DNA of 64,000 bases from an uncultured Gammaproteobacteria bacterium (GCA_964364425.1 CAYIMB010000002.1:17436-81435); one strand, 5' to 3'. Positions 3,733-51,400 are shown, counted from the first letter of the stretch. Program-made: numbers and translations. The notes: generated by a model from the sequence alone, not told the origin.

Positions 3733-3864
3733 GTCGATTTTTTACAGACCACAAACACCCGGCCCCATGCCGGGTGTTTGCTTTTGTCTCATTTTGTCTA
3801 AAATGAAGAACCGACCGGAACTGCCTACAGGCAAGTCACGGTCGGTCCTCAGGGTGCAGGGGAA

Positions 3865-4404
3865 TCAGCCCCAGGGACCATTCCCGGGCTCCCAGTCGCA
3901 GGCCCGCTCCAGCCAGTTCTGGTTGTCCGGGTGGTGCCCAATCACTCCCTCCGCGGTGTGCAGCGGGGGCGGGATTTCCACACTGAGCTGCTCCGGCAGC
4001 TCGCGGTAGGCCTGGATCAGGGCGAGCCCCTGGCGCAGCTTGCCGGTCAACTCCATGGCCAGCCCCTGGCGGTAGTGGTACTGCCAGCTCGGCAAGTCCG
4101 GCATCTCTGACACCCTCCCGGACAGCTGGTCCAGGATGGTGTGGAAGCCGGCTTCCACCCGCTGGTCCTGGCAGGAGGTGCTCCCGCGGCCGTGCGTGAA
4201 GCACTCGTTGACCAGGTGCACTGAGATCTGGTGCAGGTCCACCAGGTCCAGCTCGTTGAGCATGCTGTCCACCCGCTGGGCCAGGTGGAACAGTCCGTGG
4301 GCCGCTGAGGCCCGTACTTGCATCATGTGCATCAGAACTCCTTGCCGCTTGGGAAAATAGCGGTCTAGTGCCCCTGTTTTACGCCCAATGGTATAAAAAG
4401 TCAA
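3865..4404 (-). CDS. Hypothetical protein, GC-rich foreign-looking gene (paralog of 4474-4935)
   Basis: 179-aa ORF with a TTG start directly after TAAATCGATTTA. GC-rich codon usage. Shares the W..H..L.GK...ALI.AYRELP.E block with the downstream gene. Confidence 0.5.
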   Translation of the reverse strand: MTFYTIGRKTGALDRYFPKRQGVLMHMMQVRASAAHGLFHLAQRVDSMLNELDLVDLHQISVHLVNECFTHGRGSTSCQDQRVEAGFHTILDQLSGRVSEMPDLPSWQYHYRQGLAMELTGKLRQGLALIQAYRELPEQLSVEIPPPLHTAEGVIGHHPDNQNWLERACDWEPGNGPWG

Positions 4405-4406
4405 TG

Positions 4407-4416
4407 TAAATCGATT
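4407..4416. repeat. AAATCGATTT palindrome (TAAATCGATTTA), 2 nt upstream of the minus-strand TTG start
   Basis: Exact 10-bp palindrome. Confidence 0.9.
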
Positions 4417-4424
4417 TACTCTTT

Positions 4425-4469
4425 TAAAAAAGAAGCGGCCGCTGGTCCCGAAAAGTGGAAACAGCGGCC
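4425..4469 (-). terminator. Rho-independent terminator for minus gene 4474-4935 (GGCCGCTG...CAGCGGCC + T-run)
   Basis: 8-bp inverted repeat followed on the minus strand by CTTCTTTTTT. Confidence 0.5.
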
Positions 4470-4473
4470 AACC

Positions 4474-4935
4474 TCAATGTGCGAAGGGGTCTACTGGGGC
4501 GGGGTGGAAGCCACCTCGCTGGCCTTGGCCGGGGGTTGCCATGAGGGGCCGCGGAGGACGCTTGCGCTCGGGCTCCGTTGGCAGCTCGCGGTAGGCCATG
4601 ATCAGGGCCTTGGCCTCCTTGACCTTGCCCTGGAGCTGCTCGAACTTGGCCACCCGGTGCATGCGCTCCCAGATCGCCAGGGTGGTGAATCCGGAGGAGT
4701 CCAGGTGACACTCGGTGAGCAGATGCTCCAGGCGGTTGACCTTGCTCTCCAGCGTGCCCAGCACAGACGAATCCTGCTGGAGCTGGAAGGCCAGGCTGAC
4801 CAGCTCACTGGCGAGCTGGGTGATGCCGTCCATCTCCTGCTCCCAGTTGGACAGAATGACGGTGTTGTTGACCTGCTGCAGCACCCCGGACAGAGCCAGG
4901 GCCGCGGTGAGCTTGATGTGGATGAGGCGTGCCAA
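4474..4935 (-). CDS. Hypothetical protein, GC-rich (paralog of 3865-4404)
   Basis: 153-aa ORF. GC-rich. Homologous C-terminal block to the neighbouring gene. Confidence 0.5.
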   Translation of the reverse strand: MARLIHIKLTAALALSGVLQQVNNTVILSNWEQEMDGITQLASELVSLAFQLQQDSSVLGTLESKVNRLEHLLTECHLDSSGFTTLAIWERMHRVAKFEQLQGKVKEAKALIMAYRELPTEPERKRPPRPLMATPGQGQRGGFHPAPVDPFAH

Positions 4936-4998
4936 ATGAAAACCCTCCTTATGGGCTTGCCTGTTCTACAGATTTTTTTTCGTTTCGTCAACCAGCTC

Positions 4999-5027
4999 TT
5001 GACGAACACCCTCATTTATCATATGTT
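4999..5027 (+). promoter_or_regulatory. Putative promoter TTGACG-17-TATGTT upstream of fusA
   Basis: Spacing and hexamers match the recurring promoter pattern in this window. The AAATCGATTT palindrome lies between the -10 and the fusA ATG. Confidence 0.4.
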
Positions 5028-5037
5028 CTAGGCCTGC

Positions 5038-5047
5038 AAATCGATTT
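5038..5047. repeat. AAATCGATTT palindrome, 13 nt upstream of the fusA ATG
   Basis: Exact 10-bp palindrome. Confidence 0.9.
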
Positions 5048-5059
5048 TTAATTTTTGTT

Positions 5060-7135
5060 ATGCCTCGAAAATATCCACTAGAAAAAACTCGCAACATTGG
5101 AATCATTGCGCATATTGATGCTGGGAAGACCACGGTATCTGAACGCGTGTTGTTTTACACCGGAAAAACCCACAAAATTGGTGAGGTGCATGAAGGTGAA
5201 GCCACTATGGATTGGATGGAACAAGAGCAAGAACGCGGGATTACCATCACTTCAGCGGCTACCACCTGTTTCTGGAAAGACTGCATGATCAACATCATTG
5301 ATACTCCAGGGCACGTGGATTTCACGGTGGAGGTGGAGCGGTCTTTGCGCGTGCTGGATGGTGGTGTGGTTATTTTTGATGGTGTGGCTGGGGTGGAACC
5401 TCAATCTGAAACAGTCTGGCACCAAGCGGATAAATACAACGTGCCTCGTATTTGTTTCATCAACAAAATGGATCGCACGGGTGCTGATTTTTACAAAGAC
5501 TTAGGCATGATTCATGACCGGTTGACCAAGAACGCACATCCCATTCAGTTACCAATTGGTGCTGAGGATAAATTTGAGGGGATGATTGACCTGCTCACAC
5601 GGAAAGCTTTCTACTACCGGGATGACATGGGTCAACAAGTGGAGGAGTTGGACGTGCCGGCTGACATGCAGGAGAAGGTAGAAAAGTACCGCGGACAGTT
5701 GATTGAAGCCATAGTAGAGCAAGATGAGAAAATGATGGAAGCGTACCTTGGTGGAACAGAGCCGAGTTTAGAAGAACTCAAGACAACGCTTCGTGCCGCG
5801 GTGGTGCAATTCAAAATCATTCCAGTCATGTGTGGTTCAGCTTTGAAGAACAAGGGCGTACAAAAAATGCTGGATGCTGTGGTGGATTACTTACCATCTC
5901 CGGTGGACACCCCAGCTATTGTAGGAACTGATCCAAACGACCCAGAGAAGAAAGTTGAACGTCATGCCAGTGATGAAGAACCAGTAGCCGCCTTGGCTTT
6001 CAAAGTAGCTTCTGACCCTTTTGTGGGTAAATTGACCTTCATCCGTGTGTACTCCGGTGTGTTGCAATCTGGTTCTTATGTGATGAACACCACCTCTGGT
6101 AAAAAGGAACGTATTTCCCGCTTGGTGAAATTACATGCCAACCACCGTGAAGATATTAGCGAGATCAGAGCAGGGGATATTGGCGCGGCGGTGGGTTTGA
6201 AAGAAACCAGGACTGGTGACACCTTGTGTGATGAAACCAACCCAGTGCAATTGGAAAACATTGTATTCCCAGAACCAGTTATTTCTATTGCTATTGAACC
6301 AAAGACCAAAGCTGACCAGGAAAAAATGGGTATTGCTTTGTCTAAACTATCTGAAGAAGACCCAACCTTCCGCGTACAATCTAACGAAGAAACTGGCCAG
6401 ACCTTAATCAGTGGTATGGGTGAGTTGCACCTGGAAATTATTGTGGACCGTATGAAACGTGAATTCTCTGTGGGCGCTAACGTGGGCGCTCCGCAAGTGG
6501 CGTATAAAGAAACCATTTCTCAACACGCTGAAGCTCAAGGAAAATATATCAAACAATCAGGTGGACGTGGTCAGTATGGAGACGCGTGGGTCAAGGTGGA
6601 TCCAAATCCAGGTAAGGGCTTTGAGTTTGTGGATGATGTGGTGGGCGGGGCTATCCCACGTGAATATATTCAGCCAGTGGGCAAAGGAGCCAAAGAAGCC
6701 CTGCTCAATGGTGTCTTGGCTGGCTACCCCATGGTAGATGTGATGGTGACGGTGTTTGATGGTTCTTACCATGAGGTTGACTCGTCTGAAGCGGCTTTCA
6801 AAGTAGCTGGTTCCATGGCTACTCAAGAAGCTTGTCGTAAAGCCAAGCCAGTGATTCTGGAACCGTTGATGAAAGTGGAAGTGATCACCCCAGAACAATT
6901 CATGGGTGATGTGATTGGTGACTTGAACTCCAAACGTGGACAAATTCAAGAGATGACTGACCGGGTGCAAATGAAAGTGGTGCGCGCAGAAGTGCCCTTG
7001 TCAGAAATGTTTGGCTACTCTACTTCACTCCGTTCCATGACCCAAGGCCGCGCTTCTTATTCCATGGAATTCCAAAAGTATGCCCCCGTGCCAAACAATG
7101 TAGCTACGCAGATTATAGAAGGCAAAAAGAAGTAA
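5060..7135 (+). CDS. fusA: Elongation factor G
   Basis: [17 protein letters not shown] and full-length EF-G homology (691 aa). Confidence 0.95.
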
Positions 7136-7140
7136 GGTCG

Positions 7141-7217
7141 ATTTTCACGCGCTCTGGAATGGCTCGGGACTCGCTTGCTCCGCGCTGACGCTTGTGCGCC
7201 TCGAGTCCCTGCGCCAC
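7141..7217. other. GC-rich extended imperfect inverted repeat (GCGCTCTGG...CCAGAGCGC, nested CTCGGGACTCG/CGAGTCCC) immediately after fusA
   Basis: Read directly: 9-bp perfect outer stem plus inner stems. Preceded by GTCGATTTTCAC. Confidence 0.5.
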
Positions 7218-7293
7218 CAGAGCGCTTCAATTACTCTCCTCCGCCATCTTCCGGCGCCTTTTGGTTATTTCAAACCAGTGCTAACATGCAGAC

Positions 7294-8160
7294 ATGAAAT
7301 TACGTTCAGAAGCACGCCGAACGTTCCAGAAATCAGCCGATGTTTTGCTTCCTCATGAAGAGTTGCAACCGCGGATTTTTGATCCGCGTTTAGATTTACC
7401 GGCCGGAGAATATGCAAAATTTCGTGACACTGTTAAACGAGACACCTCTTTTAAGGGACCTAAGAGATTTAAAATTCCCCATGTAGCTTGGATCAGTTGG
7501 TTTGACCCGTCTTATAGAGACGACTTGCGCGGTGTTGATAAATACAAAGAACAGCAGGTATCTGAACTGTTTATAAAAGCTAATCAAGTTCATGGCTTTG
7601 ACTCACAAATGAGAGTGTTAGAATTGAACCTTCAACTTGCCAGAGTGTTGCAACAATTTCCAGAGACTAGAAAAGAATTAAAAGAACTAACAGAAGTTTC
7701 ACGCTTAGAATATGTAATGGAATGGATTCGTGATGGCGTAGATCCACAAATGATTGTGAATTGGATTCAGATTTGGCCTGAACACAGGGCAAGAATTATG
7801 CAAGCAGCCTTTCCTAAAGGGTTGGAGGGTTTCTTGAAACAAGAAGAACAGAATTTATTTGACCCACCTAGCAATCAAGTCAATTATGCAGCCGACTTAA
7901 GTTTGCTTTTTCCAGAATCAAAAGCTTTTTTATTACAGCTGATCAAAGACGCACTCCCAAGAGAGCGAGCGAGACTAAGAGAATTGTCAAAAAGTATTAG
8001 TCCGGATGATTTTAAAACCTACCACCGTTTGATTGGAGACCTTACAATACTAGGTGCTGAGCAGGCTACCATTGATCAACACGGTCTGATTCAGGTTGAG
8101 CTACAACCTCTGCACAAACTCAGTGTCGTGCCACCATTACCGGACAGATCAACGTTATAA
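7294..8160 (+). CDS. Hypothetical protein, fourth member of the paralog family (C-terminal PPLPDRSTL)
   Basis: 288 aa. N-terminus MKLRSEARR.. and C-terminal region align with the 236 and 1107 genes. Stop lies inside TTATAAATCGATTTT. Confidence 0.6.
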   Translation: MKLRSEARRTFQKSADVLLPHEELQPRIFDPRLDLPAGEYAKFRDTVKRDTSFKGPKRFKIPHVAWISWFDPSYRDDLRGVDKYKEQQVSELFIKANQVHGFDSQMRVLELNLQLARVLQQFPETRKELKELTEVSRLEYVMEWIRDGVDPQMIVNWIQIWPEHRARIMQAAFPKGLEGFLKQEEQNLFDPPSNQVNYAADLSLLFPESKAFLLQLIKDALPRERARLRELSKSISPDDFKTYHRLIGDLTILGAEQATIDQHGLIQVELQPLHKLSVVPPLPDRSTL

Positions 8161-8168
8161 ATCGATTT
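8159..8168. repeat. AAATCGATTT palindrome between convergent genes
   Basis: Exact 10-bp palindrome. Confidence 0.9.
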
Positions 8169-8172
8169 TATT

Positions 8173-8463
8173 TCAAAATAACGGAACCGTTTGCGGGTGT
8201 TCTATTTTATTGATATGAGCATGTACTTCATTAAACCCAACGGCCACAATGCGGGCGAAATCTTCAACGCTTGTTTCAATGCGATGGTCCGTCCAATCGC
8301 GCATTGTATTGAACTCTTCTTTCACCCAAACCCTATCCTGCCGGCGGCCTTCAATAATAAATTCGCGTATTTCAGCGAAGTGTTTATTAGTAATAGACTG
8401 CTCGCCAGCTAGGCGCTGGTCAAGCAAGTCCATGAACCACTGTTTGTCTTCTTGCGTTAGCAT
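8173..8463 (-). CDS. Hypothetical protein (96 aa)
   Basis: ORF with the conserved TTGACT-16-TATGAT promoter 6 nt upstream of the ATG on the minus strand. Confidence 0.45.
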   Translation of the reverse strand: MLTQEDKQWFMDLLDQRLAGEQSITNKHFAEIREFIIEGRRQDRVWVKEEFNTMRDWTDHRIETSVEDFARIVAVGFNEVHAHINKIEHPQTVPLF

Positions 8464-8469
8464 GGATCA

Positions 8470-8498
8470 ATCATAGATCGCGGATTTGACCAGTCAAG
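8470..8498 (-). promoter_or_regulatory. Conserved promoter cassette TTGACT-16-TATGAT (copy 1), near-leaderless
   Basis: 26 of 29 nt identical to 63133-63161. -10 box ends 6 nt before the ATG. Confidence 0.5.
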
Positions 8499-8528
8499 TG
8501 GTATGTAGCGCCGTCTGTGGAAAAGTCT

Positions 8529-8601
8529 ATCTACTCACAGAATCAAATCGATTTTTACGGGATTTGATGCTCTGAGCAGAGGAGGATGGTTGGCGGTTCC
8601 A
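8529..8601 (+). repeat. Direct repeat R1 (73 nt; contains AAATCGATTT and an ATCAAATC/GATTTGAT hairpin)
   Basis: Matches 9387-9460 with one substitution and a 1-nt T indel. Confidence 0.85.
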
Positions 8602-8620
8602 TGAAAGTCAAGACCTAAAA

Positions 8621-8667
8621 ACAAAAAAATGGCTAACTTTAGCCATAAAAAACTGTGCGTACGCACA
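8621..8667 (-). terminator. Tandem hairpins downstream of the minus two-gene cassette: ATGGCTAAAGTTAGCCAT + T-run and CTGTGCGTACGCACAG
   Basis: Perfect 18-bp and 16-bp palindromes. T-run on the minus strand. Confidence 0.5.
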
Positions 8668-8682
8668 GATTTTTGTCTGAGA

Positions 8683-9000
8683 TTACACGCCTCGTTCTAG
8701 AGCCACCAATTTGGCAAATGGTTGTAAGAGTTGCCTCAGTTGACTGAGTGATACCCCGTATTCGCTTGTGTTTTGGCTCAAATCTGCAATCACTTCGTAC
8801 AACCGTCGCAGTTCTTTGCGTTGTTTTGCCGGTGCTCCACCAAAGGCGGAGAAACTGGCCAACTCCAACGCTCTAAATAGGCAGCTCTGGGCATGCTGTT
8901 GATCATTTTTTGCTTGCAAAGATTCCGCCCGCGCTAACTCACTCTCAATGTTCATGAGTTGTGTGGCCAAAGAAAACGTAGCCCAACGTTCAGCCGTCAT
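8683..9000 (-). CDS. Hypothetical helical protein (105 aa), second gene of the cassette
   Basis: ORF overlapping the upstream gene by ATGA (8997-9000). Confidence 0.45.
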   Translation of the reverse strand: MTAERWATFSLATQLMNIESELARAESLQAKNDQQHAQSCLFRALELASFSAFGGAPAKQRKELRRLYEVIADLSQNTSEYGVSLSQLRQLLQPFAKLVALERGV

Positions 9001-9344
9001 AACGCCAGCCGCTCAGTAATCACGGCCGCTACTTGCTGTTGAATAGCCGGATTTTGAATCAAGGTTTGTGTATTGCCTTGTTTGGGCCTGATGTTGATCA
9101 AAGACGTAAATTCCACCTGCTCTCCTTGAGGCCGCCCCGGAAAAATATTTGCTCCCCAGACATTTTTTTGTTTTGAACCTGAATCTAACAACACTGCCTC
9201 CGCATCTGCATGCAACTCACCACCAATGGCCAGAATTTTTTTATCAATATCCACTACCACCTTGACCATATCGCCGAAGGTGTCTTGAGCTAAGGCCAGA
9301 ACTTGTTCTTTTGGAAGTTTGTCGGTAACGATTTGAATTTCCAT
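8997..9344 (-). CDS. Hypothetical protein (115 aa; resembles conserved DUF-type small proteins, ...DMVKVVVDIDKKILAIGGELHADAE...)
   Basis: ORF. DUF-type family assignment is from memory only. Confidence 0.45.
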   Translation of the reverse strand: MEIQIVTDKLPKEQVLALAQDTFGDMVKVVVDIDKKILAIGGELHADAEAVLLDSGSKQKNVWGANIFPGRPQGEQVEFTSLINIRPKQGNTQTLIQNPAIQQQVAAVITERLAL

Positions 9345-9364
9345 GATTCCACTCTAGCAAAAAA

Positions 9365-9378
9365 GTGTGCACGTGCAC
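9365..9378. promoter_or_regulatory. TGTGCACGTGCACA palindrome upstream of the minus two-gene cassette
   Basis: Perfect palindrome. Related to CTGTGC-N4-GCACAG at 8652 and 49511. Confidence 0.4.
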
Positions 9379-9386
9379 AGGTGTAG

Positions 9387-9460
9387 TTCTACTCACAGAA
9401 TCAAATCGATTTTTACGGGATTTGATGCTCTGAGCAGAGGAGGATGGTTGGCGGTCCCAT
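9387..9460 (+). repeat. Direct repeat R2 (74 nt)
   Basis: See R1. Confidence 0.85.
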
Positions 9461-9476
9461 CACTCCCCGGAAGGTA

Positions 9477-10229
9477 CTACCGAACGGCCGTCCAGACCCC
9501 CATGTCGTCGCCGAAGGGCACGGCCAGGCCCACGTAGATCCGGCACGTGTCGCCGGAGCCGCTGCTGCTGGTCTTCTCGTAGAGGGTGACCGTGTGGTCG
9601 TCCGACGTGACGGTGAAGCCGCCGCAGTCGTCCGACCAGTTGGCGCCGGAAGACCACTCGGCCTGGATGTCCACCCACGAGTGGTCGCTCAGGTCCGTGG
9701 TGGACGGGCTGAACATCAGGGTGTCCGTGGACGCGGACACGCTGGCCGACGCGGAGCCGCCGGACCCGTACCAGGCCCAGATGGTGGCGGGGTAGGTGAG
9801 GCCGCCGCTTGCGTCGCGGGTGACCACAATCCTGAGGACCGTGGTAGCGCTGTCGCCCGTGTCCACGACCGCGGTGTCGGTCACGGAGGTGTCCGCGGTG
9901 TCGCCGGTGCCGTCGCAGTCGGTGTCCACGCCGTCGGTCGGATCCTCGGTCGCGCCGGGGTTCACCGTGGCGTCGCGGTCCGCGCAGTCGCCGCCGAACG
10001 GGGAGTACCCGCGGGGGCGCCGGGTGGCCCAGAGGTCGGAGCCGGGCGCGCCGTAGCCGTCGCGGTCGCCGTCCCACCAGTAGTGGGTGATGACGATCCG
10101 GCTGGTACGGGACAGCGCGGTGTTGCGGACTTCCATGGTCTCGGCGCGGTCGTTGGCGGGGGCCTTGGTCTCTACGACCGGGGCGGTGGAGCGGTCACAG
10201 GCCGCCAGAATCAGAAGCAGGGACGACAT
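9477..10229 (-). CDS. GC-rich lipoprotein with Asp-rich MopE-like putative metal-binding repeats
   Basis: Signal peptide plus lipobox LAAC. Motif DCADRD..VNPGATE..DG.DTDCDG. Foreign-looking GC-rich codon usage. Confidence 0.6.
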   Translation of the reverse strand: MSSLLLILAACDRSTAPVVETKAPANDRAETMEVRNTALSRTSRIVITHYWWDGDRDGYGAPGSDLWATRRPRGYSPFGGDCADRDATVNPGATEDPTDGVDTDCDGTGDTADTSVTDTAVVDTGDSATTVLRIVVTRDASGGLTYPATIWAWYGSGGSASASVSASTDTLMFSPSTTDLSDHSWVDIQAEWSSGANWSDDCGGFTVTSDDHTVTLYEKTSSSGSGDTCRIYVGLAVPFGDDMGVWTAVR

Positions 10230-10463
10230 GGGGTTCTCCCGGAGAATGAGTTTGGCCCTGAAGATGGCACCGAACTCAAGTGAAGGTCATTTCAAGCTGC
10301 GGTTGGCGTTTCTTAGGTACGTGTGAAACCTCCCCAAAAGCACTCAACACCCTTAGGGCAGGGCCAGCAAAAATACATGACAATCGAACCCTTGTCAATA
10401 ATGGGCCTTAATGCCAAAAACACTCAAAATTGGCTTGTCCTAAGGAAATCCACCCCAGTAGAC

Positions 10464-10491
10464 TTTACAAACTAAAAAATGTTGTTATAAT
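10464..10491 (+). promoter_or_regulatory. Putative tuf promoter TTTACA-16-TATAAT
   Basis: Hexamers read directly, about 60 nt upstream of the tuf ATG. Confidence 0.45.
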
Positions 10492-10550
10492 CAGCTTTGT
10501 GTTTCGAGATAATCGAAATTATTTTTACTTAATTCCTAAAGGGAACCTCA

Positions 10551-11741: not shown

Positions 11742-11757
11742 CATAAGAACACTATAG

Positions 11758-12359: not shown

Positions 12360-12368
12360 TACACCACT

Positions 12369-38483: not shown

Positions 38484-38646
38484 CATTTTAATACCAAGCT
38501 ACCTGTACACGCCCTTGCTTTTTTCCCTAAAAATAGAGTATATTTCTGTGTTCCCAAAGCCCTTTTGTTTGATGTAGCCATAAGTGCAGGATTAAAGTTA
38601 ATTTCCTGCCTTTCTGGCTACACCCATCACAAAAAGGAGGTGAGCG

Positions 38647-39093
38647 ATGCTGGCGACTGCACTGCCAACTGTGACCCTGAAGCCCCCCGCGGGTTTCGTC
38701 CACGATCAGCGTTCCCAGGGCTGGGAGCTCCTAGAAGAAGGCCCGAAGGTCGAAGGAGAGCCCATCCTGGACTTTCTAGGCTTCCTGCGGGAAGGCGAGA
38801 CCTACATCAACGGTGAGACCGTCCTTGCCCGCGCCCTCGAGATGGAAGGGACCGAGAGCGGTCAGCACCACCTCGAGCGGCTGCTCGCCCAGGCCGCCAG
38901 CATCCCCGCGGAGCTGCGCTCGTTCTACCTCGTCGCCACCGGCACCAAGTGGCGGTACCCCGACGGTTACGTGTGCGTCCCGTACCTGCGCTTCGTCGGC
39001 GGCCAGTGGGTCCTGCTCTTCTACGGGGTCGGCAACGACCGCTGGAGCGTCGGCGATCGGGTCGTCCGCGTCTGCAAGCAGCCTGGGTCCTAG
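38647..39093 (+). CDS. GC-rich small protein, cassette copy A (paralog of 50966-51400)
   Basis: Aligns along its whole length with copy B (…GW.L…GEP.L.F..FL..GET…MEG…H.ER.L…IP.ELR.FYLV..GT.WR…VP.L…). Consensus SD AAGGAGGTG. Confidence 0.6.
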   Translation: MLATALPTVTLKPPAGFVHDQRSQGWELLEEGPKVEGEPILDFLGFLREGETYINGETVLARALEMEGTESGQHHLERLLAQAASIPAELRSFYLVATGTKWRYPDGYVCVPYLRFVGGQWVLLFYGVGNDRWSVGDRVVRVCKQPGS

Positions 39094-39176
39094 GGTCTTC
39101 GGAGCCATGGAACTTTTGTTCCCTTTGGCTGCACGGGTCCCTTGGGTCCGTTCCGGCCGTTTTGCACATTCAACGC

Positions 39177-39244
39177 CCCTGTTTCGGAGGAACCTCTCCT
39201 GCGAGGTTCTTCTGGACAGGGGTGTTGTGTTTTCAGGGGGGCTT
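39177..39244 (+). terminator. Hairpin CCCCTGT...ACAGGGG + TGTTGTGTTTT in the conserved 3' tail of cassette A
   Basis: Tail 39094-39260 is homologous to 51401-51560. Confidence 0.45.
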
Positions 39245-43732: not shown

Positions 43733-43754
43733 ATAAGTCTGTCTACCACCACGC

Positions 43755-44771
43755 ATGCTCAATCAATTTCTCATTAGTCTTACTTTGGCCGCGCATGTAT
43801 TAGGTTTAACTTTGCCCCAGGTTATTGAGGAAGGGGTGTATGTGGTACCTTCGCTCCTGACTCCAGCCACTGGTGATGTGACGGAACTCAGGGTATTACC
43901 CGCTGTGGTAGACGCCGTTTCACGTCAAGCAGAGCCAATTTCTTCGGTGGAATATCGATTTCTGCCGGTAAGCACCAACCGTCCACAACCTCCATACAAG
44001 GTAGGGACTTCCACCGGGCCTTTAGTGACTGCCAAGTCTGCCGTGTTGCTGGACCAGGCAACCGGAATGGTGCTGTGGCAAAAAAATCCCGACAGCGTGA
44101 GGCCCATTGCCTCCCTGACTAAATTAATGACGGCTGTGGTGTACTTGAAACACCAGCCCTTAGATGGAATGAATCATATTCACACCTTGGCTCCGGAAGA
44201 AAATGCCGTGATTGGGTACAACCTCACCTTTCCTTCCGGAACGCAACTCACCACCGGGTCTTTATTTGGCGCCATGTTGGTGGGCTCCTTAAATAACACC
44301 GCTCTGGCCTTGAATGGCGCGACTGGTTTATCTACAACAGAATTTATAGCCCAGATGAATCAGTTGGCAGAGGAGTTTGGAATGAGACGTACCACGTTTG
44401 TGGATCAGACTGGAGTGAATAACAAAAATGTGGCTACGGCCGGAGATGTGGCTGTGCTCGCTAAGCAAGCCTTTGCCGAGTCGGATATTAATCAGTTTGC
44501 GGATCAGACTTCACTTGAAGTGCGTGACGTGAGTGGTGAGAAGGTCCGCACCGTGCAAGCCACTAACCAGTTGGCCGGAAATACTGATGTTGAGTTGCAA
44601 GGGGCTAAGACTGGAACCACTGCAGAGGCCGGGTACTGTTATGTATTTCAGGTGGTGATAGAAGGTCATTCGGTGATAGGGGTGATTTTGGGTGCGACCT
44701 CGGATGAAAGTCGATTTTCAGATGCCATTAAGCTGATAGATTGGACTAGCCAACAATTTGATTGGAAATAA
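43755..44771 (+). CDS. D-alanyl-D-alanine carboxypeptidase (serine-type, S11 family)
   Basis: Signal peptide. SLTKLMT SxxK motif. Confidence 0.6.
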   Translation: MLNQFLISLTLAAHVLGLTLPQVIEEGVYVVPSLLTPATGDVTELRVLPAVVDAVSRQAEPISSVEYRFLPVSTNRPQPPYKVGTSTGPLVTAKSAVLLDQATGMVLWQKNPDSVRPIASLTKLMTAVVYLKHQPLDGMNHIHTLAPEENAVIGYNLTFPSGTQLTTGSLFGAMLVGSLNNTALALNGATGLSTTEFIAQMNQLAEEFGMRRTTFVDQTGVNNKNVATAGDVAVLAKQAFAESDINQFADQTSLEVRDVSGEKVRTVQATNQLAGNTDVELQGAKTGTTAEAGYCYVFQVVIEGHSVIGVILGATSDESRFSDAIKLIDWTSQQFDWK

Positions 44772-44815
44772 GTCCGTGAGCGGAGTATACTAGATGGAGA
44801 TTAATATTTTTTTAT

Positions 44816-45853
44816 ATGGCAAAAAAGATTCGCATTGCAATTAACGGGTTTGGACGAATTGGACGCACCACCTTTAAGGCGGCTTTGGAACATGAAAATG
44901 AAGTGGAAGTAGTAGCCTTGAATGATTTGGGTTCAGCGGAAAACATGGCCTACTTGTTGAAGTACGACACCAACTACGGGATATATGGACGTGAGATAGG
45001 ATTTGGTACAAATTTTTTGAGTGTGGACGGAAAAAAGTTTAGTTTGTACGCGGAGAAGGATCCTAAGAGGTTGCCCTGGAAAAAGCTCCAGGTGGATGTG
45101 GTGTTGGAATGTACCGGACGTTTTACCAACAAGGATGACGCCGGGAGGCATCTGACTGCCGGAGCTAAACAGGTGATTATTTCTGCGCCGGCTAAATCCG
45201 GAGGACCAATTGGTACGTTTGTGTTGGGCGTAAACGCTCACGCAGGCCGGGCTTGGAAAAAGGCCAAGGGAACAGAGGTGATCTCTAACGCCTCATGTAC
45301 CACTAACTGCATTGCTCCGGTGATGGCGGTGTTGGAGAGTGCCTTTGGAGTGAAGAAAGCACTCATGACCACGGTACATTCGTACACGGCGGATCAAAAC
45401 CTGGTAGATGGCCCACATACAGATTTCCGTCGCGGCCGTTCTGCCGGAGCCAACATAGTTCCTACTTCTACCGGGGCGGCTCTGGCCACTACAGAAACCA
45501 TCCCCAGCCTGAAAGGAAAATTTGATGGGATAGCCATTCGCGTTCCGTCCACTACAGGCTCTCTATCTGATATTACCGCCGTGGTGAAAAAGAAAGTGAC
45601 CGTTCAGTCAGTCAACGCTGCGTTCAAGAAAGCAGCTAAGAATCCGCTATTCAAAGGCATCTTAGCGGTGAGTGAAGAAGAGCTGGTGTCCAAAGATATT
45701 GTGGGTCGTCCGGAATCAGCGATTGTGGATTTGGCCTTGACCATGGTAGTAGGAGATGACCTGGTGAAAGTGTTTGCTTGGTATGATAACGAATGGGCGT
45801 ATTCGTTACGTTTGGTTGAAGAAGCCATCTTGGTGGGTAAGGCGGTTGCCTAA
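44816..45853 (+). CDS. gap: Glyceraldehyde-3-phosphate dehydrogenase
   Basis: NGFGRIGR and SCTTNC. Confidence 0.9.
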   Translation: MAKKIRIAINGFGRIGRTTFKAALEHENEVEVVALNDLGSAENMAYLLKYDTNYGIYGREIGFGTNFLSVDGKKFSLYAEKDPKRLPWKKLQVDVVLECTGRFTNKDDAGRHLTAGAKQVIISAPAKSGGPIGTFVLGVNAHAGRAWKKAKGTEVISNASCTTNCIAPVMAVLESAFGVKKALMTTVHSYTADQNLVDGPHTDFRRGRSAGANIVPTSTGAALATTETIPSLKGKFDGIAIRVPSTTGSLSDITAVVKKKVTVQSVNAAFKKAAKNPLFKGILAVSEEELVSKDIVGRPESAIVDLALTMVVGDDLVKVFAWYDNEWAYSLRLVEEAILVGKAVA

Positions 45854-45881
45854 TTTAGACAGGAGAGTACACTGGCGCGTT

Positions 45882-47489
45882 ATGGAAACTGAATTATCTA
45901 GACCCGGTATACCTAGACACAAACCCCAAGAGTTTGAGCATGTAGTCATGGTTGTGGTTCCAGAGGGAGCCATCCAAGCAGATTTGCAACAATTGGAGAA
46001 GCGCGGGGTGAAGGTGCGTGATCAAGTAGTCACGGTTGAATATGAATACGGAGATAACGACATGGCCCTGGCTGATTATCAGTTTTCAGACGGAGCGTTT
46101 TGTTTGGTGAAAAAGTATGATAGCAATGTGCATTGGCCGGATGTTGTGGCTGAAAAGAGCAAGGCACAAGAATGGGCCGGTGATGTTCCTTTTTTGGTCA
46201 AAAAGAAACCTGAGAGCATTTCAACTATCCCGTCTGAAGGCTCACGTTCGCCTGAACCGCCACCCCCTAGTCCGCCTCCAGCGCCGCCTCCTGAAACTCC
46301 ACCGGCCTCTCCCACCCCGCCTGAGTGGCCATCTTTTGAATCCGAGAGAGAGTGGGAGTTATTGCAAAGGTATTGGAGGTTAGTGGCTCAAATTGAAGAT
46401 GCCCAACTGAAGATAGAACAGGCAAAGATTACCGAACGGAGACAGGAAATTCCTATTCAAACACGACGTTTAGAGATTGGACAAAAAAATTTACAACAAT
46501 TTCTAGTTCATCATCCGGAGTACACAAACCTTCCCAAGCCTTTGGAGGTTGCCAGTATAGATTTAGCGAGCGTAGAGGGCAGGAGGCGAGCCAAGGCGTT
46601 GTTGTTAGATAGTGATTTATCTCCAGTCGAAGCGGGCAAGCGCATCATAGCCATTGAGAAGGCGGGAGCTAAAATCGAATTACATCATCCAAAGTTGGAA
46701 CAGGGAGTTGGCACCAGTGCTGTGCGGCCTCCGCTCAAAACGGTCATGACTGACTTGAAGGAGGCACAGTACCGTGTTGGCCGTTTGAATAGTTTAGGGT
46801 TGTTGAGTCAACTCCAACATGGGGACACCCGGCATAATAATTTGCTGCGCTTAAAATCCACACGCCAGAGTTTAGAATATATTTTAAAACGATTTTCACC
46901 TCCCCCTCACGCCGACTCCTCCCTTAGCCGAGATTTTTTAGCTTTGCTGCATGGAGTGGTGGACGCCGTGAAGAAGGTTGAACAAGGGACCCAAAAAAAC
47001 TTTTTGTCTCGCTGGTGGTCACAGAATGAACTGATTCAACAACACAGAAAAATTGGTCAGGGCTTAAAAAAGTTAGAACAATTTACCCAGGAACACAGGG
47101 AGTTTGTGTACGCTTGCGCCCAGATCGAATTTCAACTAAGGTGGGCCAACACTTGGAGTTTTCATGTTCTCCGTCACCGTCCAGCAGTTCTCCGCCTGGA
47201 ACATCCTGTACCTGTTCATGATCCTGCTCGGCACCCTGATCCTGCTGTCCGCGCTGGTCATCCAAGACTGGCTCTGGATGAACAGGGAGACCGGTGTCTC
47301 GGCAGGAACGGCAGTCATGAACTTGCGCTTCTGGCAGTTAGCCTCCTGCTTGGTGGGGATCTCCTCCGCCTACGGAGCAGTCCCGCCGGTGCTGTTTGTG
47401 ACCGTCCCGACCTGGTTCCTCCTGACCCGCATGGTCGGGATGCCCCTGAGCGCGGCCATGATCGCTGCGGCGTGGTATGTGGCGTGTAG
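45882..47489 (+). CDS. Hypothetical Pro-rich protein
   Basis: ATG 45882. After ~47160 the frame runs into GC-rich DNA and translates to Arg/Pro junk until a chance stop. Confidence 0.45.
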   Translation: METELSRPGIPRHKPQEFEHVVMVVVPEGAIQADLQQLEKRGVKVRDQVVTVEYEYGDNDMALADYQFSDGAFCLVKKYDSNVHWPDVVAEKSKAQEWAGDVPFLVKKKPESISTIPSEGSRSPEPPPPSPPPAPPPETPPASPTPPEWPSFESEREWELLQRYWRLVAQIEDAQLKIEQAKITERRQEIPIQTRRLEIGQKNLQQFLVHHPEYTNLPKPLEVASIDLASVEGRRRAKALLLDSDLSPVEAGKRIIAIEKAGAKIELHHPKLEQGVGTSAVRPPLKTVMTDLKEAQYRVGRLNSLGLLSQLQHGDTRHNNLLRLKSTRQSLEYILKRFSPPPHADSSLSRDFLALLHGVVDAVKKVEQGTQKNFLSRWWSQNELIQQHRKIGQGLKKLEQFTQEHREFVYACAQIEFQLRWANTWSFHVLRHRPAVLRLEHPVPVHDPARHPDPAVRAGHPRLALDEQGDRCLGRNGSHELALLAVSLLLGGDLLRLRSSPAGAVCDRPDLVPPDPHGRDAPERGHDRCGVVCGV

Positions 47490-47541
47490 CTTCGGCTACT
47501 TCTACTGCATCTACGCCCCGCGCAAGCTGCAGACTTTCTAG
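47164..47541 (+). CDS. GC-rich small membrane protein (4 TM)
   Basis: Convincing TM ORF in a different frame inside the GC-rich segment ~47160-47600. Confidence 0.5.
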   Translation: MFSVTVQQFSAWNILYLFMILLGTLILLSALVIQDWLWMNRETGVSAGTAVMNLRFWQLASCLVGISSAYGAVPPVLFVTVPTWFLLTRMVGMPLSAAMIAAAWYVACSFGYFYCIYAPRKLQTF

Positions 47542-47671
47542 GTCCGGGGAGCAGTTCGCACGTTTGAACGCGCCGAGATAGTAGGCAGTCAGCCTCTCTC
47601 GGTGCGTTCTTCAGTTTCAAAGTTTTTATGTTCACCAATCACCAGATTGGCCAGGTCCAAAAGTTATCCAT

Positions 47672-47695
47672 AAGACCGCGAAACGGTCTTTTTAC
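47672..47695 (+). terminator. Rho-independent terminator AAGACCG-CGAAA-CGGTCTT + TTT
   Basis: Read directly. Confidence 0.6.
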
Positions 47696-47707
47696 GTTTT
47701 TACCATG

Positions 47708-47717
47708 GTGACCCCAC
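47708..47717. repeat. GTGACCCCAC, 10-bp direct repeat of the tRNA-Glu 3' end (49368-49377)
   Basis: Exact 10-mer. Brackets the lower-GC AAA-ATPase segment. Confidence 0.4.
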
Positions 47718-47810
47718 TGCATGGTTTCCAGAACTAGTTAATCAAAGAGAGTATATATGGAGTTTGATTGAAAATCTACAGTCTGCGATGGTTGGAGGTA
47801 GTCAATAGTC

Positions 47811-47934
47811 CTATACAAAAAATACACTACTTTTATGCCTAAATTAGGCATTTTTATTGTGTAAATTATCTTTTGTATACTAGACTATACAAAAGATAAC
47901 ACTATCTGTATACTCTGTAGTATAAGGATAAAAT
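47811..47934. promoter_or_regulatory. AT-rich region with nested palindromes (TTATCTTTTGTATA-CTAGAC-TATACAAAAGATAA; GCCTAAATTAGGC; TATACT..AGTATA) upstream of the AAA ATPase gene
   Basis: Inverted repeats read directly. Operator-like. Confidence 0.45.
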
Positions 47935-49371
47935 ATGAATCAAATTCTACTGCAATATGTCCAAAACCAATTAGTTCGTGCCGGGCAGCGACTTAACGCG
48001 AATACTATTGATGCTCAGGGTAAAAAGTACCCACAACGCAATATCTACATCAAAATAAAAAAACACGTTGATGATTTTATAAGCGGAAAGTCATTAACGC
48101 GCTGGATAGTTATTCCGGGCCTGAGAGGTGTAGGGAAGACTACGGCTGTGTCTCAAATTTATTTTTACCTTACCCAAGATCAAAAAGTAAAAAGTAATAA
48201 TATCCTCTACACCTCACTAGATGAAGTCACAGATTTAGGTGGAAACCTACGAGAAGTTTTGGGAACATATGAGAAGGTACTTGGAAAGAGTTACGAGCAG
48301 CAGAATGAGCTCATTTTTATTTTACTTGATGAAGTGCAAGTTGACCCTAAGTGGGCATCAATACTTAAAATTCTTCACGAGAAATCAAAAAAAGTCTTTA
48401 TTATTTGTACTGGATCCTCTGCTGTAGAATTACAATCAAACGCCGATGCAGAACGACGAGCAATTTTTGAACGGTTATTTCCCATGAGTTTTACCGAATT
48501 TCAGATGGTGCAACGCGGCATATACCCCACAAAGGGACTGAAGTATGATTTACAACAAGCTTTGTATCAAGCATCTTCTGTAGAAGTAGCCTTTCAGAAA
48601 CTACAGGCATTAAACCAAGTAATCTTATCATACTGGTCAAAGGTTGATGAATTATCAGTTTCTGAATTTCTTAAAGTGGGGACACTCCCATTTGCGTTGA
48701 GCTATTCTGATGAATATCAGGTCTACCAAGCTATCAATCGTTTACTTGAACAGGTCATTGATAAAGATATCCGAGCACTTGGCAGTTTTAGTAATGAAAC
48801 GTTAAGTAAAATTAAACAGCTACTTTTTTTACTAGCAGATAGCAACGGTTCACTCGCTTTTTCAACCATCGCTAAGACTTTGGATATGCAACGACCAACT
48901 CTGAATAGCATCTTTGATGCCCTTGAAAAAACAGAGTTACTGATAAGAGCTTTACCACAAGGAGCAAACAATAAGCGAGTTACAAAACCATCTAAGTTTT
49001 TATTTATGAGCCCTGCTCTACGGTTAGCATTATTGAGTATTTCTGGACTCAAACAGACATTCGATACTCAACAAGGAGCTTTACTAGAAGATGTAGTAGC
49101 ATTGCATTACTATCGAGAGTTTGTAACAAAGCGTAAGGCTTCACTCATGTATGATGCAACTGAGGGTGGTGCAGACTTTATTGTGAATTTTATCCAACAC
49201 CGTAGGATTGTTGTTGAGGTTGGGATGGGGAGCAAAGATTCAAAACAAGTAGTGAAAACAATGAGTAAAGTTCAGAGTGATTATGGAGTAGTAATTAGCT
49301 CTACAGAACTAGGGGTTGATGAAATAAACAGAATAGTTTTTCTACCTATTAAGTTCTTTTTATTGATGTGA
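47935..49371 (+). CDS. AAA+ ATPase, COG1373/DUF4143-like
   Basis: Walker A GLRGVGKTT and Walker B LLDEVQ. Visibly AT-richer than its neighbours. Confidence 0.6.
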   Translation: MNQILLQYVQNQLVRAGQRLNANTIDAQGKKYPQRNIYIKIKKHVDDFISGKSLTRWIVIPGLRGVGKTTAVSQIYFYLTQDQKVKSNNILYTSLDEVTDLGGNLREVLGTYEKVLGKSYEQQNELIFILLDEVQVDPKWASILKILHEKSKKVFIICTGSSAVELQSNADAERRAIFERLFPMSFTEFQMVQRGIYPTKGLKYDLQQALYQASSVEVAFQKLQALNQVILSYWSKVDELSVSEFLKVGTLPFALSYSDEYQVYQAINRLLEQVIDKDIRALGSFSNETLSKIKQLLFLLADSNGSLAFSTIAKTLDMQRPTLNSIFDALEKTELLIRALPQGANNKRVTKPSKFLFMSPALRLALLSISGLKQTFDTQQGALLEDVVALHYYREFVTKRKASLMYDATEGGADFIVNFIQHRRIVVEVGMGSKDSKQVVKTMSKVQSDYGVVISSTELGVDEINRIVFLPIKFFLLM

Positions 49372-49440
49372 CCCCACCGGGAATCGAACCCGGATTTCAG
49401 CGTTGAGAACGCCGCGTCCTAACCGTTAGACGATAGGGCC
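49369..49440 (-). tRNA. tRNA-Glu (anticodon CTC)
   Basis: Cloverleaf folded by hand on the reverse complement. Anticodon loop TTCTCAA. T-arm CCGGGTTCGATTCCCGG. Confidence 0.75.
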
Positions 49441-49510
49441 ATGCCGCGCTAGACTATCCAAAAAGCTACCAACCGTCAAACCTGAACACTTAAATTCCTT
49501 AAGGATTTAG

Positions 49511-49526
49511 CTGTGCATACGCACAG
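49511..49526. promoter_or_regulatory. CTGTGCATACGCACAG palindrome (CTGT-N8-ACAG) upstream of rlmH
   Basis: Shares 22 nt with 8652-8670. Confidence 0.4.
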
Positions 49527-49544
49527 ATTACAACCAACAACTTT

Positions 49545-50018
49545 GTGTACTCATTTACCCTTCTCGTTGTCTCCGCTAGCAAGCCCGGTCCCTGGAAAGA
49601 CCTGGCGCAGGAATACCAGACGCGGCTGACTCCGTATGCCAAATGCAAATTGATTGAAATACCTCAAGCGGTTTTTTCTTCTGCAGCAGAGCGCCAGAAA
49701 GTGCAGGCGCAGGAGGCTGAGGTCTTAAGAAAATCGATCTCCAAGGGAGCATATACCGTAGCCTGTGATGAACGGGGGAAATTTTTCACCTCCACCCAGT
49801 TTGCGCAGCAACTCAAGACGTGGTCAGAACAAGAAACCAGAAACATCACGTTCCTCTTGGGCGGCCCGCTGGGCCTGCAACCTGCGTTGGTGCAAACGGT
49901 ACAGGCTAAGCTGGCCCTCTCCAGCTTTACTTTTCCACATGACCTGGCCCGGGTGGTTCTCCTAGAGCAACTCTACCGCGCTATGACCATCCTCAAAGGC
50001 AAAACCTATCATTACTAG
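49545..50018 (+). CDS. rlmH: 23S rRNA (pseudouridine1915-N3)-methyltransferase RlmH
   Basis: SPOUT family. C-terminal ...LEQLYRAMTILKGKTYH. Confidence 0.8.
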   Translation: MYSFTLLVVSASKPGPWKDLAQEYQTRLTPYAKCKLIEIPQAVFSSAAERQKVQAQEAEVLRKSISKGAYTVACDERGKFFTSTQFAQQLKTWSEQETRNITFLLGGPLGLQPALVQTVQAKLALSSFTFPHDLARVVLLEQLYRAMTILKGKTYHY

Positions 50019-50128
50019 CGGCGACTACGGTTGCGTTTGACAAAACAAAAAATAGAGAGCAGAACAAGCTTGGCGCAAACCTCTGCGCTCCTGGTCACAA
50101 GCCAGATTCTTACAACCCGGATCAACAG

Positions 50129-50653
50129 ATGTTGGCCCTGCTCCTGTCCGCCTGTTCCAAACTAGCGCTGGAGGACTGCACTGACCGCCACCACGAGCCC
50201 CGCAACTCCGACACGCACAGCACCTCCGACGGCATCTCGACCAACTCCACTCCGGCCGAGCAGGGTGCCCCCTGCCCTCAGCGCACTGACCAGCGCACGG
50301 GCAACGGGGCCATCACCCTGACCTTGGAGCTGGACAAGCCGGAAACCTTCACCCTGCGTCCGGTCACTGGCCTCACGGTGGAGGATACCTACACCGTCCC
50401 CAACACACACGTCCTGGGCTACAACCCGGAGACCGGGGCTGAGCTGTTCGTGGGGGAGCAGGCAGTGCTCTACTACTGCGACACTGACTTCTGGTTCTAC
50501 TGGGGCGATCTGGACGTGAACCACGTCATGGACTCGCGGGGGAGCGGCCTCTACCACAGCTCACAGCGGATGTACAACGAGGACAGCACCCTGCGTGAGA
50601 CCCGTCAGGTGGACTTCCGGATCCGCGTCACGGGCCTGGTGTTTCGCCAGTAG
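50129..50653 (+). CDS. GC-rich lipoprotein (lipobox LLSAC), unknown function
   Basis: Signal peptide plus Cys. GC-rich. Confidence 0.5.
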   Translation: MLALLLSACSKLALEDCTDRHHEPRNSDTHSTSDGISTNSTPAEQGAPCPQRTDQRTGNGAITLTLELDKPETFTLRPVTGLTVEDTYTVPNTHVLGYNPETGAELFVGEQAVLYYCDTDFWFYWGDLDVNHVMDSRGSGLYHSSQRMYNEDSTLRETRQVDFRIRVTGLVFRQ

Positions 50654-50965
50654 TTGCACCTTTGAGAGGACCTCCACTCTCAGTTCCATGTCGATTTTCA
50701 TGCGCAGAAAAATCGCCATAGAACTGTTCACCACTTGCTGGTGAATTACCGCCCAACGCTGAGTCTGCTGGATTGTGGTGCATGTAGTTTAGAATGTACG
50801 GTGATGCCCAAACTATGGACATTTCCTTCTGAACCTGCTATTATCCGGTGTCGCACTTTGATATTAAGCTATTTACAGTTGATTGCAGGCCTAAGGCCAT
50901 ATTTAACCCTATATAAGGGTTTTATGTGTATTTAGATCTGCAATCAAGCAGAAGGAGGTGTCCCC

Positions 50966-51400
50966 ATGAGCAGCCCCTTGGCGCTCCCTGGCATGAAGCT
51001 GAAGGCCCCCAAGGGCCTGATCTACGACAAGCGGAAGGAGGGATGGGCCCTCACCAAGGAGGGCGACCAGATCGAAGGTGAGCCCGACCTGGAGTTCGTG
51101 CCCTTCCTCCAAGGCGGCGAGACCGCCATCGTGGGAACCACCATGGTGGAACGCGCCGTCGCCATGGAGGGCCTCACCAGCCAGTACCACGCTGAGAGGA
51201 TGCTCCAGCAGCAGGACCAGATCCCGCCGGAGCTGCGGCCGTTCTACCTGGTCTTCGCCGGTACGGAATGGCGGGACTCCGACGGCGACCTCTGCGTCCC
51301 GTGCCTCTTCTGGTACGGCGACGAGTGGATCCTGTACTTCGACTGGCTCGCCCGCGGGAGCTGGGGCTCCCGCGCTCGGCTGGTTCGTCTCCGCAAGTAG
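50966..51400 (+). CDS. GC-rich small protein, cassette copy B (paralog of 38647-39093)
   Basis: See copy A. SD AAGGAGGTG. Homologous 3' tail 51401-51560. Confidence 0.6.
   Translation: MSSPLALPGMKLKAPKGLIYDKRKEGWALTKEGDQIEGEPDLEFVPFLQGGETAIVGTTMVERAVAMEGLTSQYHAERMLQQQDQIPPELRPFYLVFAGTEWRDSDGDLCVPCLFWYGDEWILYFDWLARGSWGSRARLVRLRK

Follow-up and report, generated by a model that had tools for sequence, protein, structure and literature searches.

The GC fraction of the third positions of codons (GC3) is bimodal in the 64,000-nucleotide (nt) stretch of DNA analysed here (GCA_964364425.1, CAYIMB010000002.1:17436-81435; hereafter the window). In a greedy, non-overlapping set of 75 open reading frames (ORFs), the 68 that make up the backbone have a GC3 of 0.466 ± 0.060 and never exceed 0.61, and the other seven, ca. 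9% of the window's genes, lie at 0.84-0.95 (z = 6.2-8.0 against the backbone); the range from 0.62 to 0.84 is empty. The seven encode a tandem pair of orphan proteins, a lipoprotein with a MopE-type motif (the MopE lipoprotein), a second lipoprotein, a small membrane protein, and two related proteins that we call cassettes A and B. In contigs from relatives (L004-L010, L091, L093, L096, and L097; W denotes the window), the GC3-rich class is inherited vertically and syntenically, with its bias retained. We give an even chance to the reading that a groundwater bacterium of the Patescibacteria (candidate phyla radiation, CPR) has in these seven ORFs genuine accessory genes, each transcribed on its own, and that they belong to a second, lineage-wide compositional class in which G/C-ending codons are actively maintained.

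Composition and limits of the GC3-rich class

An earlier reading made from the sequence alone (the sequence-only reading) had described GC-rich segments amid a mid-GC backbone, and both the per-gene GC3 values and a sliding-window analysis bear this out. Against a mean GC of 47.9% for the window, six segments reach 0.60-0.68: 3784-4964 (0.62), 9402-10303 (0.68), 38600-39255 (0.63), 47140-47615 (0.605), 50928-51497 (0.635), and 50129-50653 (ca. 0.64), the last being a gene within a broader GC-elevated stretch at 49787-50709. Per-gene analysis places the GC excess mainly at third codon positions. GC2 stays near the backbone value (0.41-0.45), except in the MopE lipoprotein gene (0.59), and GC1 is moderately raised; backbone genes analysed frame by frame have a GC3 of 0.31-0.54, a GC2 of ca. 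0.30-0.47, and a GC1 of ca. 0.5-0.6. Third-position A and T are equally depleted in the seven genes (A3 0.01-0.09, T3 0.04-0.09), and C3 exceeds G3 on the coding strand in six of the seven, independent of gene orientation. The preferred codons are CTG, GCC, GGC, ACC, ATC, AAG, and GAG, there are fewer Lys and Ile residues, and codon and amino-acid usage resemble those of a genome of 65-70% GC.

The same frame-by-frame analysis confirmed that the reading frames named in the sequence-only reading are the real coding frames. Its statement that all six frames are open was overstated: each GC-rich segment has a single coding frame, and as a rule stops are absent or almost absent from two or three frames. 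These near-stop-free frames are a by-product of a GC3 near 0.9 and account for the spurious overlapping ORFs. Comparable islands were not seen in ca. 50 fusA-centred loci (up to ca. 22 kb) from other bacteria, including several Patescibacteria. The segment at 59578-59938 was considered for membership of the class and rejected. It is a Pro/Ala/Glu-rich repeat linker within ORF 59393-60247, with a GC1 of 0.83 and a GC3 of 0.43; its GC richness is driven by amino-acid composition and is a distinct phenomenon.

The GC shift spans the coding sequence plus ca. 60 nt of terminator hairpin and goes no further. In a meta-profile around 22 GC-rich genes, mean GC is 0.42-0.46 between positions -150 and -30, 0.55 over the first 30 nt of the coding sequence, and 0.64-0.69 over the remainder. 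It is 0.61 and then 0.57 in the first 60 nt past the stop codon, where the terminator hairpin lies, and 0.44-0.47 further downstream. No GC3 gradient is present in eight of ten flanking genes. Each GC-rich gene is its own transcription unit: it is preceded by either a sigma-70-like promoter or a strong Shine-Dalgarno sequence, and it ends in an intrinsic terminator hairpin.

GC3 in syntenic orthologues and relatives

Two families illustrate the retention of the bias. W, L009, and L010 all carry a MopE lipoprotein gene in the slot tuf - MopE - DUF5674; the products of these orthologues are 63% (W-L009), 49% (W-L010), and 48% (L009-L010) identical, and GC3 is 0.94-0.95 in all three. The second family is a PNP_UDP_1 nucleoside phosphorylase (PNP), which fills the slot between topA and relA in L004, L091, and L093 (identity 65-86%, GC3 0.85-0.88), accompanied there in L004 and L091 by a syntenic orphan of 146-149 amino acids (aa), orph146. 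MopE and PNP identities pair the relatives as the flanking backbone DNA does. The nearest outgroup PNP is 43% identical and comes from a genome of 0.38 GC, where its GC3 is 0.54 versus ca. 0.3 for its neighbours.

We compared fourfold-degenerate sites, restricted to those under identical amino acids, and expressed divergence as Jukes-Cantor (JC) distance. In the backbone genes of L004, L091, and L093, topA (ca. 250 sites) has a JC distance of 1.1-1.3 and a fourfold G/C fraction of ca. 0.44-0.56, and relA has a JC distance of 1.4-1.8 and a fraction of ca. 0.48-0.66; in both, the differences are mostly between strong (G or C) and weak (A or T) bases (S<->W). In the same three contigs, PNP has a JC distance of 0.68-1.00, a fraction of 0.86-0.89, and 33-36 C<->G differences beside 22-30 S<->W. 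The MopE genes of W, L009, and L010 have a JC distance of 0.53-0.85, a fraction of 0.93-0.99, and 29-32 C<->G differences beside 4-8 S<->W. Fourfold identity among the MopE genes is 0.49-0.62, versus 0.45-0.48 expected at saturation. The sites have thus turned over while remaining G or C.

These values differ from those expected under amelioration. The amelioration model, reportedly set out by Lawrence and Ochman in 1997, takes atypical composition to mark foreign genes and lets their GC3 decay to the resident value. We calculated that, once 0.6-0.9 substitutions per site had accumulated in each lineage, a JC-type relaxation that started at 0.87 and headed for the backbone equilibrium would have brought fourfold G/C to ca. 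0.61-0.67. The observed range is 0.86-0.99, and un-ameliorated recent import is therefore excluded for the MopE and PNP families.

GC3-rich genes are also gained and lost in variable slots shared by relatives, where extra GC-rich genes fill the corresponding positions. Further GC3-rich genes in these contigs encode a BT1 transporter (GC3 0.93), a response regulator (GC3 0.82), and a secreted protein with a weak MopE match, as well as orphans that differ within shared slots.

In the cassette family the bias accompanies the gene. All eight members, found in eight genomic contexts, have a GC3 above that of their backbone: 0.85-0.91 for W-A, W-B, L004, L006, and L096 (backbone ca. 0.47 GC), 0.75 for L007 (backbone ca. 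0.35 GC), 0.70 for L008 (a 1.1-kb contig with flanks of ca. 0.37-0.53 GC), and 0.74 for L097 (backbone GC3 ca. 0.5). The 5' untranslated region (UTR) hairpin of the cassette (GTAGCCA...CAGGA...TCCTG...TGGCTAC) and ca. 150 nt upstream of it are common to W, L006, and L096 despite different flanking genes. Thus, the unit moved together with its own promoter and leader.

The proposed maintenance of the codon bias and its rivals

For G/C-ending codons at a GC3 of 0.84-0.95 to be kept beside a backbone at 0.47 for so long that synonymous sites saturate, the GC-rich coding sequences would have to be under a fixation bias directed towards G and C. Under a standard mutation-fixation balance, a population-scaled bias of ca. 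2-3 would suffice to shift equilibrium GC3 from ca. 0.45 to ca. 0.9. Among the candidate forces, we rank first, at a little under an even chance, selection that acts on codon choice or on the coding mRNA. Such selection is favoured because the start codon and the terminator bound the GC shift, and because C3 exceeds G3 on the coding strand whichever way a gene is oriented; it also fits the elevation of GC3 as an intrinsic property of the cassette family across its contexts. It could act through conditional translation or mRNA stability of a regulon of envelope and host-contact proteins. More tentatively, two codon regimes may coexist, with the GC3-rich one (ca. 0.9) marking envelope, ligand-binding, and nutrient-salvage genes and being kept by selection on the coding mRNA. 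Conditional translation might then be tied to the state of tRNAs or of their modification, or mRNA survival might be at stake during dormancy or attachment. No description of such a gene class in Patescibacteria was found in the literature searched.

Several points weigh against selection of this kind and against the class as we describe it. We know of no rationale for such codon selection, and the highly expressed genes (tuf and the ribosomal protein genes) show no such preference, with a GC3 of 0.41-0.48. GC1 and, less so, GC2 are raised and Lys and Ile are depleted, which argues for a pressure on all sites or for a foreign origin rather than for pure codon choice. Two of the ten flanking genes (3220-3732 and 49545-50018) reach a GC3 of ca. 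0.7 in the 50 codons on their island side. Finally, the argument for vertical inheritance rests on three taxa per family, for which a congruent topology would arise by chance with a probability of ca. 1/3 per family. The ultimate origin of the seven genes may be foreign.

The rival that survives best, unlikely as we judge it, is that the genes are horizontal cargo, acquired repeatedly from high-GC donors (Myxococcota, Actinomycetota, or higher-GC Patescibacteria of the same aquifer) and either caught before amelioration or continually replaced by incoming alleles. Codon and amino-acid usage are those of a high-GC genome, and MopE motifs are typically met in lineages of high GC. The genes are self-contained and moron-like, each with its own promoter or Shine-Dalgarno sequence and terminator, and the region at 47-51 kb holds a tRNA-Glu gene as well as a gene that is AT-rich and looks foreign. 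The field site in question, Hainich CZE, also hosts Parcubacteria of ca. 58% GC (PMC11188291), and horizontal gene transfer (HGT) has been surveyed in groundwater Patescibacteria, among which it is reportedly common (PMC12455944). The sequence-only reading had itself proposed repeated acquisition of high-GC genes and a homology search for their donors. The foreign-looking composition stands, but repeated acquisition from high-GC donors is not supported in the form proposed. Searches of ca. 5.8 billion protein clusters, GTDB species representatives, JGI metagenomes, phages, and plasmids recovered no homologue in a high-GC context, and the close relatives whose context was examined all lie in mid- or low-GC Patescibacteria backbones. 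Orthologues are syntenic, have conserved mid-GC promoters and leaders, and keep their GC3 despite saturated synonymous divergence. Even the tandem paralogues, only 25% identical, both have a GC3 of at least 0.86. Among the marks of a recently acquired island, the genes show atypical composition and codon usage; absence from the corresponding site in relatives, homologues in a donor lineage, and amelioration were not found. As to signs of mobility, the 47-51 kb cluster contains the tRNA gene, no integrase or transposase is present in the Pfam-annotated parts of the window (3524-20229 and 29981-49093), and no flanking repeats specific to the GC-rich islands were found in it.

Less probable again is GC-biased gene conversion or repair (gBGC) at recombination-prone, flexible loci, where the genes, as variable ones for surface and ligand-binding proteins, would recombine often and so drive the fixation of W->S changes. 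It would account for the shift at all three codon positions, for the two neighbours with raised GC3 at their island-side end, and for the location of the genes in slots with gene gain and loss. Conversion-like tracts exist as well: 27 of 29 nt (93%) are identical between 4580-4608 and 3995-4023, within tandem paralogues whose proteins are only 25% identical, and a 73-nt repeat is 99% identical. Recombining bacterial genes reportedly have a higher GC3 (Lassalle et al. 2015, PMC4450053), and our genes resemble that case in the direction of the bias and in its association with recombining or flexible genes; they differ in the much larger magnitude, the mostly unaffected flanks, and the coding-strand excess of C over G. 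The boundaries are sharp and track the coding sequence, with 5' UTRs and eight of ten neighbours at backbone GC, whereas allelic replacement through conserved flanks would be expected to enrich the flanks and not the divergent interior. A strand-symmetric process also predicts no excess of C3 over G3 that follows the coding strand in either orientation. No shared hotspot motif emerged, as counts of 8-10-mers (uptake-sequence or Chi-like) inside the GC-rich genes were no better than in synonymous-codon shuffles, and a GC3 effect of +0.4 is far above the magnitudes that we know from bacteria.

It is very improbable that a targeted mutational mechanism, such as a trans-acting retroelement like a diversity-generating retroelement (DGR), shaped the composition. 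DGRs are reportedly frequent in CPR bacteria. Mtd and TvpA are variable DGR proteins of C-type-lectin fold, and the cassette proteins recall them both in their predicted fold and in the concentration of variability among homologues in the C-terminal ca. 40 residues, against a conserved W/L/F/G scaffold. When both strands of the window were scanned for a template repeat, however, only the paralogous cassette was found, and Pfam annotation of the parts named above contains no reverse transcriptase (RVT family). The equal depletion of A3 and T3 is unlike the adenine-specific pattern of DGRs, and the bias spans whole genes of unrelated families. Moreover, L004 and L005, which are 98.65% identical overall, differ at only ca. 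2-3 positions in the cassette gene, as read by eye from the alignment.

The check for chimeric assembly at the junctions, proposed in the sequence-only reading, was approached through contigs from other assemblies. A 35-kb contig of ENA ERZ1292631 matches window positions 29981-49093 at 100% identity, a 1.2-kb contig of ENA ERZ1292636 matches cassette A with 1 mismatch, and a contig of an NCBI metagenome-assembled genome labelled "Patescibacteria group bacterium" (GCA_038062635.1) matches 3524-20229 with 2 mismatches. Five of the seven genes thus have their junctions reproduced, with 0-2 mismatches, in Hainich groundwater assemblies, which excludes chimerism for these five; the two genes at 50129-51400 lie outside these contigs. 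Although the data are metagenomic and the contig names indicate low coverage (cov_5, cov_2), a chimera or contamination with high-GC reads is barely credible, given these recurrent junctions, the matching architecture in related genomes from other samples, and the coincidence of the boundaries with start codons and terminators. The lineage itself is poorly represented among GTDB species representatives, where the closest EF-G proteins are 72% (Falkowbacteria) and 68% (Moraniibacteriota) identical.

Two known kinds come closest: acquired islets or phage morons, and the bimodal GC3 seen in grasses and vertebrates. Like islets and morons, the GC3-rich genes are small, self-contained units of atypical GC that sit between conserved genes and vary in presence among relatives; a tRNA gene is close to some of them. 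They differ in being chromosomal, outside any prophage, and GC-rich, when acquired genes are usually AT-rich, and in being syntenic without amelioration despite saturated synonymous divergence. Grasses have bimodal GC3 gene classes and vertebrates have isochores (PMC2895627, PMC4316631). The likeness lies in two discrete GC3 classes that are stable in one genome, the GC3-rich one being richer in variable, responsive genes; the differences are that the present case concerns a prokaryote, whose genome is tiny and which lacks meiosis, is limited to coding sequences, and involves only the small fraction of genes given above.

Atypical composition is routinely taken as a sign of recent transfer that is bound to ameliorate, and the class described here is discrete, limited to coding sequences, syntenic, and stable. 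This implies either a so far unrecognised force, selective or mechanistic, on codon choice in one tiny genome or a persistent gene pool with a composition of its own. If the two-regime reading is true, composition alone would pick out a host-interaction regulon of uncultured Patescibacteria, and the class would be a clear prokaryotic exception to amelioration. GC3 would be a simple handle for fast-evolving lipoproteins and lectin-like proteins, the probable mediators of cell-cell contact in uncultured CPR bacteria. Composition-based detection and dating of HGT can go badly wrong in these lineages.

Individual genes and neighbouring elements

Cassette A (38647..39093, plus strand, 148 aa) follows a 5' UTR hairpin (38574..38621, plus strand) and, after it, a strong GGAGGTG Shine-Dalgarno sequence. 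Its terminator, a long hairpin with a U-tract (39171..39235, plus strand), lies within a 3' tail at 39094-39255 of ca. 0.57 GC, and the 210 nt that contain it (39091-39300) have a folding energy of -96.6 kcal/mol (z = -4.5). Cassette B (50966..51400, plus strand, 144 aa; GC 0.664, GC3 0.91) likewise has a GGAGGTG Shine-Dalgarno sequence and a terminator of hairpin and U-tract (51485..51542, plus strand). The two are paralogues, 48% identical. Both are predicted to adopt a C-type-lectin-like fold, and the structure model is confident (pLDDT 86.5). The family is large, with 1538 representative clusters in a profile search, and has no Pfam model; among ten clusters looked up, the only named member is a Patescibacteria protein. 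No tblastn match to the cassette protein was found in phages or plasmids, GTDB species representatives gave no locus, and JGI metagenome contigs gave one.

We considered whether the cassettes are integron gene cassettes and rejected the idea: their 3' elements fold as intrinsic terminators with U-tracts, one such element is reused after a backbone operon, no integrase was seen, and none of the genes lacks a promoter or Shine-Dalgarno sequence of its own. The Logan contigs L004, L005, L006, and L096 end 19-101 nt after the cassette-family gene, which looked suspicious. The 5' half of the cassette A terminator is conserved in L004, L005, and L096, and the contigs break there; L004 and L096, from one sample, both stop in TGCACCTTCAACGCCCCTGCTCCGGTAGAT, the 5' arm of the hairpin. 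The ends are explained by a terminator hairpin common to paralogous cassettes of one sample. A candidate separate element, GGGTGTTG, proved to be merely the 3' arm of the cassette terminators. Rfam returned two tRNAs only in the window, and permissive scans of the cassette flanks gave chance-level matches. L096 also encodes a large serine recombinase of the Resolvase family (3816-5492; 558 aa, low GC), 4.5 kb from the cassette-family gene; it is the sole mobility gene seen near any GC3-rich gene.

The MopE lipoprotein gene (9477..10229, minus strand, 250 aa) has a GC of 0.709 and a GC3 of 0.95. The MopE-like motif noticed earlier was confirmed by a PF11617 (Cu-binding_MopE) match of 33.7 bits (cut-off 27), which covers residues 81-110 and represents one motif copy; six of the seven proteins have no above-threshold match in Pfam, NCBIfam, PADLOC, or PHROGs, and only this motif scored. 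The motif is precomputed for all homologues of the protein. It is followed by a short Asp/Thr-rich linker of variable length and a conserved C-terminal domain that is probably all-beta. The protein resembles the MopE-motif proteins, a putative metal-binding group, in its single Asp-rich copy, and differs from them in its lipobox, linker, and C-terminal domain, which are specific to the lineage. An AlphaFold model was too poor to use (pLDDT 41.9). Upstream lie a sigma-70-like promoter (TTGACA-17-TATTTT) and the start of the 5' leader (10340..10398, minus strand), at backbone GC; W, L009, and L010 have this promoter and leader in common, all of mid-GC composition.

The second lipoprotein gene (50129..50653, plus strand, 174 aa) has a GC of 0.644 and a GC3 of 0.88, and a GCACCTTTGAGAGG hairpin follows its stop codon. 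That both proteins are lipoproteins, as had been proposed, is supported by N-termini read from the translations, MSSLLLILAAC (lipobox ILAAC) for the MopE protein and MLALLLSAC (lipobox LLSAC) for the second, judged by an N-terminal signal peptide ending in [LVI][ASTVI][GAS]C. The lipobox Cys is invariant across the MopE lipoprotein alignment.

The tandem pair consists of helical orphans. Paralogue 1 (3865..4332, minus strand, 155 aa) has a GC of 0.67 and a GC3 of 0.91, counted from ATG 4332, and paralogue 2 (4474..4935, minus strand, 153 aa) has a GC of 0.649 and a GC3 of 0.86, with a terminator hairpin 3' of its stop codon. Their proposed paralogy holds (E = 1e-8, with an ALI.AYRELP block in common), but the proposed start of the first gene at TTG 4404 does not. 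The mechanical ORF reaches that codon, and the gene most likely starts at ATG 4332, behind AAGGAG. The small membrane protein gene (47164..47541, plus strand) encodes 125 aa with three to four hydrophobic segments and has a GC of 0.611 and a GC3 of 0.90. A 571-aa ORF at 45774-47489 has no stop before this gene and overlaps it by 326 nt in another frame without coding periodicity; either its tail is junk or its original end was removed by an insertion.

Downstream of the small membrane protein gene lies the AT-rich gene mentioned above (47935-49371; an AAA_14 + DUF4143 ATPase; GC 0.376, GC3 0.31), which abuts tRNA-Glu(CTC) at 49368-49440. As it stands between GC-rich genes, the 47-51 kb cluster is a mosaic variable region that contains both atypical kinds.

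The 3' module of the MopE gene (9388..9460, minus strand) comprises a hairpin, CTCTGCTCAGAG, and the palindrome AAATCGATTT. It recurs as a 73-nt direct repeat (8530-8602 and 9388-9460, 99% identical), being reused behind an operon that encodes DUF5674 and a 105-aa protein, and the two copies suggest recent gene conversion between intergenic elements. The same architecture stands behind the MopE orthologues of L009 and L010 and behind an extra lipoprotein gene in L009. In the window, AAATCGATTT occurs in 8 exact copies (at 1975, 4408, 5038, 8159, 8545, 9403, 35829, and 39299) and in 20 with at most one mismatch, where 3 are expected. Seven of the eight exact copies are at gene ends or intergenic, and the copy at 35829 is inside ORF 35122-37761. 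We rejected the palindrome and the 73-nt module as island-specific elements, since both are genome-wide and intergenic; AAATCGATTT is probably a regulatory or terminator-associated site. GCACCTT after the stop codons of GC-rich genes appeared recurrent by eye, yet it is found 12 times across the window against 10.9 expected, also follows a backbone ORF at 29794, and is unproven.

Two further repeats were noted. A 61-nt direct repeat (3188-3248 and 30992-31052, 85% identical) is 5' UTR-like in both copies, one upstream of an ORF for a secreted or membrane protein and the other between the genes for ferredoxin and pyruvate:ferredoxin oxidoreductase. It has no match in Rfam, where permissive scans stayed at chance level, and is a candidate cis-regulatory RNA. 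A repeat of 32-40 nt, CCGTTACCGGACAGACCTC...TAAATCGAT, occurs at 198-229, 1070-1101, 1947-1978, and 8131-8162. ORFs 236-1099, 1068-1976, and 7294-8160 end at such a copy or shortly after it and are probably paralogous genes with a common C-terminus and 3' signal.

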